A program made the translations under genes and the position numbers. From Coriobacteriia bacterium (lineage in GTDB: Bacteria > Actinomycetota > Coriobacteriia > Coriobacteriales > UBA8131): a stretch of DNA of 64,000 bases. Position 1 is the stretch's first letter; each line of letters opens with the position of its first letter. The stretch covers positions 76,380-140,379 of the forward strand of contig WRHU01000004.1 in assembly GCA_009783085.1 (NCBI GenBank), written 5' to 3'. The notes under the pieces are model-generated. The model did no database searches, was not told the DNA's origin, and worked only from the letters and a program-made list of their open reading frames with translations. Shown here piece by piece: positions 26,258 to 27,259 of the stretch.

Positions 26258-26704
26258 ATGCACTATGTTTACGAGTTTGAAATATATGAAAGCGAGGGAA
26301 AGCTTGTGACGTTGCCCTTTGATATGGACGGGGGAACTCAAGGAGGCACCCTAAGGGAAGCAGCTTTTATGGCCACCGATTGGTTACGGTTGGACATTGA
26401 GCATAGGCTGATGTACGACCTTGAAATCCCAAAGGCAACGTTTGGAAACAAACCGCAGCAGAATGGACGCATCCTGCTTATTGCAATCGAAGCAAGTCTT
26501 GACACCATCAGTGCTGTTGCCGCCTATAAAGCAGCCGATATGCTTGGAGTGTCACGGGGGCGTGTGTCGCAGATGGTATCGGCAGGATTGCTTGATGGTT
26601 TTAGGAAAGGACGAGATGTCTTTGTAACCACCGACAGCATAGCGGCGCGTCTTGCTGAGAAACCAAGGGCGGGTCGTCCGAGCAAAAAGCTTGCACTGGT
26701 GTAA
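26258..26704 (+). CDS. hicB: HicB-family antitoxin with C-terminal helix-turn-helix
   Basis: N-terminal HicB pattern (FDMDGGTQGGTLREAAFMATDWL) and C-terminal AADMLGVSRGRVSQMV HTH; directly follows hicA; SD GGAGG. Confidence 0.85.
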   Translation: MHYVYEFEIYESEGKLVTLPFDMDGGTQGGTLREAAFMATDWLRLDIEHRLMYDLEIPKATFGNKPQQNGRILLIAIEASLDTISAVAAYKAADMLGVSRGRVSQMVSAGLLDGFRKGRDVFVTTDSIAARLAEKPRAGRPSKKLALV

Positions 26705-26711
26705 CACGCAT

Positions 26712-27006
26712 TCTGGCTTCGATTCCCTCACGGACGTCTTGAACAAAAAAAAAGAACCCCTATCGGGGCTCTTTTGCAAATAGCTGGTACGCCGTGAGGG
26801 AATCGACGCAATTTTGGAAACCTCAAAATTGCGTGTCCTTGTTCGCTTGGCTCACTTCGGACCCTCGGCTACAAACGTGCCACTGGCACGTTTGATGACG
26901 CCTCGCCCCATGTCTGGCTTCGATTCCCTCACGGACATCTTGAACAAAAAAAAGAGCCCCTTATCGGGGCTCTTTTGCAAATAGCTGGTACGCCGTGAGG
27001 GAATCG
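26712..27006. repeat. Two ~95-bp direct repeats (26712-26806, 26913-27006), each containing an inverted tRNA T-arm copy, a terminator and the tRNA-Lys 3' end
   Basis: Near-identical copies of TCTGGCTTCGATTCCCTCACGGAC...GAACAAAAAAAAAG.CCCC.TATCGGGGCTCTTTTGCAAATAGCTGGTACGCCGTGAGGGAATCGA. Confidence 0.92.
26945..26976 (-). terminator. Intrinsic terminator downstream of tRNA-Lys (a second copy lies at ~26745-26775)
   Basis: Minus strand AAAAGAGCCCCGATAAGGGGCTC followed by a T run. Confidence 0.85.
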
Positions 27007-27061
27007 AACCCGCGACCTTAGGATTAAAAGTCCTCTGCTCTACCAACTGAGCTAACGGCGC
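26986..27061 (-). tRNA. tRNA-Lys (anticodon UUU)
   Basis: GCGCCGTTAGCTCAGTTGGTAGAGCAGAGGACTTTTAATCCTAAGGTCGCGGGTTCGATTCCCTCACGGCGTACCA; 76 nt cloverleaf with encoded CCA. Confidence 0.97.
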
Positions 27062-27174: not shown

Positions 27175-27259
27175 TGGTAGGGGCGATGAGACTCGAACTC
27201 ATAAACCTTGCGGTGGTGGATTTTAAGTCCACTGCGTATGCCAATTCCGCCACGCCCCC
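27175..27259 (-). tRNA. tRNA-Leu (anticodon UAA)
   Basis: GGGGGCGTGGCGGAATTGGCATACGCAGTGGACTTAAAATCCACC...GAGTTCGAGTCTCATCGCCCCTACCA; long variable arm, 85 nt. Confidence 0.96.

Follow-up and report, generated by a model that had tools for sequence, protein, structure and literature searches.

The tRNA-Lys locus and its module

The stretch analysed here (the window) is 64 kb of a 1.58-Mb Coriobacteriia metagenome-assembled genome (MAG) from the termite gut, 91% complete and with 46 tRNA genes (G000), and the element in question is a small module without an open reading frame (ORF) that lies behind its tRNA-Lys(UUU) gene. This gene occupies 26986–27061 on the minus strand (called by ARAGORN, and by the Rfam tRNA model at 66 bits) and stands last in a Leu(UAA)-Lys operon, with tRNA-Leu(UAA) upstream at 27175–27259. 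The functional orientation of the module is the minus strand, i.e. the tRNA sense. Read in this direction, the locus runs from tRNA-Lys through a terminator (T1), an antisense arm (S1), GAAGCCAGAC and the core, a sense copy of the tRNA end (t3'b) and a second terminator (T2) to a second S1 with GAAGCCAGA; all coordinates given for these parts refer to the minus strand.

T1 (26950–26976, an 11-pair stem plus T-run in the terminator scan) directly follows tRNA-Lys and is its native trailer. S1 (26920–26934) is an exact 15-nt complement of tRNA-Lys nt 55–69, a segment made up of the T-loop, the 3' half of the T-stem and 4 acceptor nucleotides. S1 serves as the 5' arm of a closing helix, P1, and the conserved GAAGCCAGAC comes next. 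The conserved core (26807–26919), recognized from nine genomic copies, model R1, per-copy folds and covariation, is followed by t3'b (26785–26806), a CCA-ended sense copy of tRNA-Lys nt 55–76 (TCGATTCCCTCACGGCGTACCA) that is identical to 26986–27007 and supplies both the 3' arm of P1 and an unpaired tail of 7 nt. R1 scores 160.5 bits on the window module over 26785–26935.

An earlier note on this DNA had described a ~143-bp unit with 15-bp terminal inverted repeats drawn from the tRNA T-arm and acceptor and with two further hairpins enclosed, and this description proved accurate. The two inverted arms, CCGTGAGGGAATCGA (26792–26806) and TCGATTCCCTCACGG (26920–26934), match exactly over 15 nt, one being tRNA-Lys nt 55–69 and the other its complement, and a third arm copy lies at 26716–26733. 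Both inner hairpins (26806–26816/26824–26834 and 26872–26882/26884–26894) are complementary at 11 of 11 positions. The same note had the unit flanked by ~95-bp direct repeats. The repeat is real (26712–26806 and 26913–27007, 95 nt, 94% identity, 201-bp period in the repeat finder), but it is better seen as the overlap of 1.47 tandem 201-bp units, the second of which is truncated. T1 sits within the proximal repeat copy 26913–27007, and its duplicate T2 (26750–26775; terminator scan, direct-repeat family D1) within the distal copy 26712–26806. The second unit starts with a distal S1' plus GAAGCCAGA at 26712–26733 (inverted repeats I1 and I3; sense-strand layout) and ends after 9 nt of core sequence; the stop codon of a convergent gene (26258–26704) lies 7 nt away.

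A family of modules tied to tRNA genes

The inner 106 nt of the module has nine copies in this genome, at 83–96% identity (65–70% for a divergent Ala copy), and a covariance model search of the genome returned exactly those nine and nothing further; recurrence of this kind goes far beyond chance. Each lies behind a different tRNA gene (Lys-UUU, Glu-UUC, Met-CAU, Thr-UGU, Cys-GCA, Gln-UUG, Val-UAC, Leu-UAG and Ala-GGC), 25–65 nt 3' of the CCA and in tRNA sense, and where tRNAs are clustered the element stands behind the last of them. The 3' arm is the host tRNA's own nt 55–76, perfect in seven of the nine copies (one mismatch in Leu, four in Glu), and the 5' arm of all nine is the complement of the host T-loop and T-stem plus 0–4 nt of the acceptor. 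The sense copy of the tRNA end (t3') was found in every complete copy. The ends of the element are thus borrowed from each host tRNA, and the check that the earlier note had proposed, a search for copies at other tRNAs with ends matching each host, gave the result it anticipated. A one-off local duplication or inversion at the tRNA-Lys locus would explain the 201-bp repeat period and nothing else; nine copies at nine tRNAs here, and 78 aligned copies across genera (see below), refute it and leave it a negligible probability.

The flanking repeats vary in length from 21 nt (the tRNA end alone) to 95 nt. Six long ones stop in S1 or at most ~12 nt into the core, and three others before S1 or 20–60 nt into the core. 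Eight more tRNA genes carry remnants, in which an S1-type inverted copy of the T-arm lies 35–57 nt after the CCA and the remainder is missing. The first few core nucleotides are kept in six of these eight, e.g. ...CCTGGATTTGAAGCCAGA behind tRNA-Pro(CGG), so that the point at which the second unit of the window breaks off recurs at remnant sites such as this one. Full copies stand behind 9 of the 46 tRNA genes, and copies and remnants together mark 17. Across the 16 scored sites the distance to the CCA ranges from 25 to 65 nt, with 11 falling at 45–57 nt. Two core types are represented in this genome, by the eight type-A copies and by the Ala copy, and there are GAACCCGAGAGGG-type remnants besides. 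No element was found behind the tmRNA gene of this genome; a ‘permuted tmRNA’ called by ARAGORN (G000 C6:114009–114641) looks spurious, overlapping the true tmRNA at 113756–114105, and the sequence downstream is an ordinary membrane-protein gene.

Structure and covariation of the module

Copies are 140–160 nt long. Five helices agree among independent folds of 26 copies, and the helix set is made up of P1 (S1 with t3'b), a small hairpin, P2 with tandem G-A pairs around the palindromic P3, P4 and P5. The small hairpin (about 26907–26917 in the window) reads CCC-GNRA-GGG in most subfamilies. The palindromic hairpin enclosed by P2 spans 26872–26894, and the GA-rich P4 pairs GTCC (26859–26862) with GGAC (26835–26838), replaced by GTGC/GCAC in some copies. 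P5 (26806–26834) is a hairpin of free sequence immediately before t3'b; per-copy folds place all four in the window. Closed in this way, the module has a helix that resembles the acceptor and T-arm portion of a tRNA, with CCA as its 3' tail.

Among 78 model-aligned copies from across genera, 92% of cells are paired. In this alignment, which was fitted to the model and in which covariation of P1 arises by construction, the covariation score was 0.314, compared with 0.098 for shuffles (0 of 500 reached 0.314) and at most 0.059 when partners were slid. P3 was 99% paired, with double changes at eight of its ten pairs.

GNRA loops (GTGA, GCGA, GGGA, GAGA and GAAA) occur on the tRNA-sense strand only, and it is mainly for this reason that we think the sense RNA matters. 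A GCGAAGC motif recurs in the family. This sequence is a very stable mini-hairpin as DNA, and the motif may have a role in single-stranded DNA.

The module has no promoter-like site of its own in the promoter scan; the only such site, a sigma70-like promoter of the Leu-Lys operon (27299–27271, minus strand), precedes tRNA-Leu, and T1 and T2 flank the module. Transcription would therefore come only from read-through of T1. A read-through transcript with a tRNA-like 3' end had been suggested in the earlier note, and the CCA-ended t3'b fits such a product.

Two other functions for the module were considered and rejected. A sigma-54 promoter in the palindrome (TGGCACG-N4-TAGC) was dropped as the match is lost in other subfamilies and Actinobacteria are not known to have sigma-54, and a small tpr-like ORF was dropped as its start codons vary between copies. 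The stretch 26872–26900 on the minus strand, which in tRNA sense reads TGGCACGTTTGTAGC, has the sigma-54 -24/-12 spacing (GG-N10-GC) and a perfect TGGCAC, probably by chance.

Distribution and relatives

BLAST found the core in 15 of 41 relatives. Among 27 copies fetched from relatives, 21 follow closely on a tRNA gene of matching orientation; ~17 tRNA species are represented, with host-matched arms. Model R1 matched 40 of 151 high-quality Coriobacteriia genomes, which belong to 12 of 81 genera and have one to nine copies each, and beyond the Coriobacteriia it matched one locus in an uncultured Clostridia MAG (L046) and one in an uncultured Clostridiales bacterium (L055). One family locus (L157) lies behind a tmRNA gene. 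Metagenome contigs X1–X4, aligned to two of the loci, break at the repeat.

A second core type was seen at four loci of genus g31 behind tRNA-Ser(CGA) (L224, L225, L228 and L229), with a hairpin GCTGAGNAAATGCGCTGAGCATTTNCCAGC, GCGAAGC motifs and the S1...t3' layout. R1 barely detects this type, and the superfamily is therefore broader than R1 shows.

The best-conserved piece of the module is the hairpin AAACGTGCC-NNN-GGCACGTTT, set in a stem with a GTTAAGA/TTAG internal loop, and this palindrome module is nearly identical in sequence across Coriobacteriia, Clostridia and phi29-like phage contigs. In the last of these (L158–L174 from IMG/VR, ~15 kb) the same ‘stem-GTTAAG-[AAACGTGCC NNN GGCACGTTT]-TAG-stem’ arrangement occurs in podovirus contigs that encode the Gp16 ATPase, the Phi29 capsid protein and a connector, with no tRNA near the module. 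It is intergenic there and lies beside structural genes, after the capsid gene in L159 (4480–4530) and, in L158, with the connector gene on one side and an unassigned ORF on the other. Used alone as a probe of public genomes the palindrome was unspecific, a called tRNA lying upstream in only 41 of 139 matches. A Clostridiales MAG locus (L079:3900–4400) contains tandem units that are each a repeat of the last ~100 nt of a protein gene, stop codon included, each followed by a AAACGTGCC-ACC-GGCACGTTT hairpin, a layout in which the end of a non-tRNA gene is repeated.

Occupied and empty sites

The sister species (G001) has copies at Arg(CCG) and Thr(CGU), sites that are empty in this genome. At the Met locus upstream of tuf both species of the genus carry a copy, with arms that follow each species' own tRNA. 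At the Lys locus of G001 (L192) the core has been lost and S1 and the tRNA end are kept. The order there is S1, TTAA, the last 10 nt of the tRNA(UUU) with CCA, a copy of the trailer and a second S1, an arrangement that suggests excision of the conserved core from between its arms. Across genera, tRNA-Lys(UUU) is followed by different core subfamilies, by an S1 remnant or by nothing. The tRNA-Arg(CCG) gene is inverted relative to its flanking genes between the two species (G000 C1:254609–254684 vs G001 L010:1379–1454, the element being present in G001 only), and because of this inversion the pair could not be used to set the boundaries of the element.

Genus g31, with many species and genomes of 1.8–2.5 Mb, gave the more informative comparison. 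The tRNA-Ser(CGA) copy is orthologous in eight of its species, with stems kept, loops variable and one compensatory stem pair; the 24-nt S1 is still a perfect complement of the tRNA end, and the 3' arm has decayed. Other g31 species have a different core type or nothing at the same tRNA-Ser locus, where core type I, core type II and empty sites all occur within the genus. The native terminator adjoins the tRNA in occupied (L225) and empty (L230) alleles alike, and the module therefore lies after the native terminator and not within the tRNA 3' end, where the earlier note had put it.

This position argues against an integrase-type crossover inside the T-loop, and with it against reading the module as the remnant or satellite of an integrative element, a mini-island of the cis-mobilizable (CIME) kind whose direct repeats would be attL and attR. 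The minimal direct repeat does span the T-loop to the CCA (21–23 nt), which is the typical identity block of T-loop-targeting integrases and the one feature that the module shares with such elements. A CIME would start inside the tRNA and displace the trailer to the far side, the opposite of what g31 shows, where the native terminator stays beside the tRNA when the site is occupied. Furthermore, the module is only ~150 nt long, nine tRNAs would each require a matching attP, and the inverted S1 arm is left unexplained. The checked neighbours hold no integrase, and the only tyrosine recombinases in this genome are two Xer-like matches to PF00589. We consider this origin very improbable and effectively rejected.

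Resident genes or mobile modules

The main rival to a module that is rewritten and renewed is a set of resident RNA genes, acquired long ago at each tRNA operon and inherited vertically, with ectopic gene conversion of the cores as in rRNA operons and with losses only. Selection or local gene conversion would keep the arms matched, and absences would reflect recombination between the tRNA-end repeats. The g31 evidence suits it in that one tRNA-Ser(CGA) copy has been kept in eight species with constrained stems and free loops. So do the occupation of the Met locus in both species of the genus, the precise deletion alleles known from E. coli (see below) and the failure to detect a mobility enzyme in this genome. 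Core identity is 95–97% within this genome (Lys, Glu and Met copies) and 90% to the orthologous Met copy of G001, and cores that are closer within a genome than between orthologues are what concerted evolution predicts. Against resident genes, an ancestor with modules at most of its tRNA operons would be needed, this genome combines two plainly different core types (eight type-A copies, and the Ala copy at 65–70% identity) with GAACCCGAGAGGG-type remnants besides, and two core types alternate at a single tRNA locus in g31. The near-identity of the palindrome module in Coriobacteriia, Clostridia and phi29-like phages likewise points to horizontal movement. On balance we regard purely vertical inheritance as unlikely, if less so than the other alternatives weighed here.

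Multiple copies with intragenomic similarity of 95–97% would also be expected of a classical non-autonomous element, similar to a miniature inverted-repeat transposable element (MITE), a palindrome-associated transposable element (PATE) or a short interspersed nuclear element (SINE), moved in trans by an enzyme encoded elsewhere in the genome or in another replicon. A transposase of the HUH or DDE type, or a reverse transcriptase (RT) with target-primed synthesis, might recognize the hairpins and cut at the T-loop or the terminator. The flanking repeats of 21–95 nt and the truncated second units fit this idea, remnants that break at or just past the S1/core boundary recall truncated insertions, and the distance to the tRNA end is tight (45–57 nt at 11 of 16 sites). 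RT is somewhat commoner in carriers of the element (7 of 15) than in non-carriers (6 of 26), but its presence does not track the element. A profile search, which did not extend to DDE or IS91-type transposases, found no match to RVT_1 or Y1_Tnp in this genome, and neither RT nor Y1 was found in a 100%-complete relative with four copies (G026); RT is thus absent from two carriers, where a SINE-like element would have it as partner. Nor are the ends fixed, each copy having its own; a short target duplication of constant length is lacking, and the inspected loci include no larger autonomous relative. Movement by such an enzyme seems to us distinctly improbable.

The immediate neighbours that were checked (a U32 peptidase, a 148-aa HTH_17 protein and two beta-helix proteins) include no recombinase gene, in agreement with the earlier note, which had reported no adjacent integrase or transposase. 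The 148-aa ORF is the plus-strand gene at 26258–26704 that converges on the element. By eye its N-terminal half is HicB-antitoxin-like, its C-terminal half gives an excisionase-type HTH_17 match (E 1e-5) just below the Pfam cut-off, and the 450-nt gap upstream holds no obvious HicA-like partner.

From this locus the earlier note had proposed a non-autonomous element that targets tRNA 3' ends and borrows their sequence, a proposal to be given up if the element turned out to be single-copy, without empty alleles, without covariation or a known family. We find a multi-copy element with empty alleles in relatives, covarying helices and no Rfam family at threshold. The borrowed ends and the targeting of tRNAs stand; transposition proper does not find support, with neither RT nor Y1 detected in this genome and two Xer-like proteins as its only tyrosine recombinases. 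Orthologues under structural constraint in eight species of one genus would also suit a resident RNA gene family homogenised by gene conversion.

Comparison with RtT and other systems

The earlier note knew of no named family for the element, but RtT of E. coli (rttR, RF00391), known since the late 1970s, has the same layout. In tRNA sense the RtT unit of tyrT-tyrV-rttR is 178 bp long. A trailer comes first, followed by GGGGAAGGAT, which is complementary to ATCCTTCCCC in tRNA-Tyr; the core then contributes a hairpin, GCGTTGCC-GCA-GGCAACG, together with GCGAAGCG motifs, and the unit closes with ATCCTTCCCCCACCACCA, in which 18 nt of the tRNA-Tyr 3' end are repeated, CCA included. Like the nine copies here, RtT follows immediately upon a tRNA gene encoded on the same strand, and its 3' end copies the tRNA 3' end with CCA and pairs with a complementary 5' segment to give the helix that closes the Rfam consensus structure; the 22-nt copy at 26785–26806 and the 15-bp P1 are the counterparts in the window. 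A GC-rich palindromic hairpin with a 3-nt loop, GA-rich motifs of the GCGAAGC type, tandem units and independence of any protein are also common to both. RtT is present in 4738 of 5426 complete E. coli genomes at 1–10 units each, so that copy number varies, and strains with zero units exist; in precise empty alleles (e.g. NZ_CP010200) the CCA of tRNA-Tyr is joined directly to the flank over 129/129 nt. Eighteen RtT matches lie on plasmids.

At the level of sequence the likeness is marginal. With R1 as query on E. coli, the three tandem units behind tyrV were matched end to end at 12 bits (E 0.15), mainly on P1 and the CCA tail. The RF00391 model gives 133–137 bits on E. coli controls and at best 21.5 bits in the family, for L015, which aligns to it end to end (E 0.035 with 201 nt searched); the gathering score is 45. 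An Rfam search of the window gave no RtT match at E ≤ 1, and family members all remained below threshold at E ≤ 10. The layout is thus common to RtT and the Coriobacteriia module, and the family falls short of membership in RF00391. The two differ further in that the K-12 locus has RtT behind tRNA-Tyr genes only, whereas nine tRNA species are served here, each with arms of its own; in that a strong terminator parts tRNA and module here; and in the carriers, which are Enterobacteria in the one case and Actinomycetota and Bacillota in the other. The module is of the same kind as RtT, here serving several tRNAs as a family and found in another phylum. What the comparison supplies is a look-alike and not a mechanism, the function and origin of RtT being themselves unexplained. 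In the literature searched, RtT is mentioned in passing only, as an RNA without clear function or origin, and we found there no account of a multi-tRNA family with host-matched arms.

Other known systems share fewer features. MITEs and repetitive extragenic palindromes (REP), including bacterial interspersed mosaic elements (BIME) and REP doublets (REPIN), are likewise small, ORF-less, hairpin-rich, multi-copy and intergenic, often near terminators. Their ends, however, are fixed and element-specific, in contrast to arms that differ per copy and match the host tRNA, and they need a cognate transposase or REP-associated tyrosine transposase (RAYT), whereas every copy here is tRNA-linked and no Y1 transposase was found. 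Small RNA genes are also encoded between the dual terminators of E. coli rRNA operons (rrA/rrB/rrF; PMC8144298); they carry no copy of the upstream gene's end and do not form a dispersed family with host-matched arms.

A proposed tRNA-trailer module rewritten from its tRNA

With about even confidence for and against, we propose that the window contains one complete and one truncated unit of an RtT-like tRNA-trailer module, ORF-less and ~150 nt long, which lies after the terminator of an operon-terminal tRNA, is made into RNA by read-through and has its arms rewritten from that tRNA. By analogy with E. coli, read-through of T1 would transcribe the module between the two terminators, and the tRNA 3'-end machinery might then trim the transcript to a stable small RNA, as is annotated for rttR. 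rttR is annotated as a small RNA of E. coli, and its release as a stable small RNA from the tRNA transcript has reportedly been demonstrated in the older literature.

The arms would be written and maintained from the adjacent tRNA through template switching or gene conversion among the inverted and direct T-arm repeats of the tRNA, S1 and t3'b. Both boundaries between core and arm lie in the universal TTC of the T-loop, and the T-arm is nearly palindromic; the arms could therefore be written without a dedicated enzyme. In E. coli, the correction of quasi-palindromes is well established and proceeds independently of RecA. New or renewed copies could similarly arise without an element-encoded enzyme, if host enzymes switched templates or converted genes at the T-arm, again by analogy. 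Unequal exchange between the direct repeats of the tRNA end would yield tandem units, precise deletions and remnants that retain only S1.

Several observations weigh against the proposed trailer module. Counts of G-U vs A-C in P1 revealed no strand bias, and a simple model in which P1 must pair fails for the g31 orthologues, where a decayed 3' arm accompanies a perfect S1. The locus occurs in no RNA run, and runs for an Eggerthella-like relative covered the tRNA only; expression, processing and the acting strand are taken from E. coli and from the loop motifs, and T1 looks strong, so that read-through may be rare. No insertion event or intermediate was seen among these loci, template switching being invoked by analogy only, and an enzyme acting in trans could sit in the missing part of the 91%-complete genome. 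The similarity to RtT is mostly architectural; common descent is possible but unproven.

A broader version of the proposed module appears doubtful to us, if somewhat less so than purely vertical inheritance. RtT-like modules might form a widespread class of enzyme-less, self-addressing genetic elements or RNAs, from Enterobacteria to Coriobacteriia and Clostridia, with a conserved structured core set between antisense and sense copies of the tRNA end in front of it. Template switching at the near-palindromic T-loop would rewrite the arms from the host tRNA, and the RNA, a tRNA ‘top half’ with CCA, could serve as a decoy, sponge or antisense partner of that tRNA or its 3' fragments.

Significance

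For genome analysis, these elements break metagenome assemblies at tRNA loci, and the spare tRNA 3' ends that they carry may mislead finders of tRNAs and of att sites. For the biology of the family, the RtT layout is no quirk of one enterobacterial tRNA-Tyr operon, standing as it does behind about a fifth of the tRNA genes of this small genome. There every copy is fitted to the tRNA that it follows, and structural constraint conserves the design in many gut Coriobacteriia. This raises two questions: how an element without a protein gains ends copied from its target, and what role a tRNA-specific, CCA-tailed small RNA would have.

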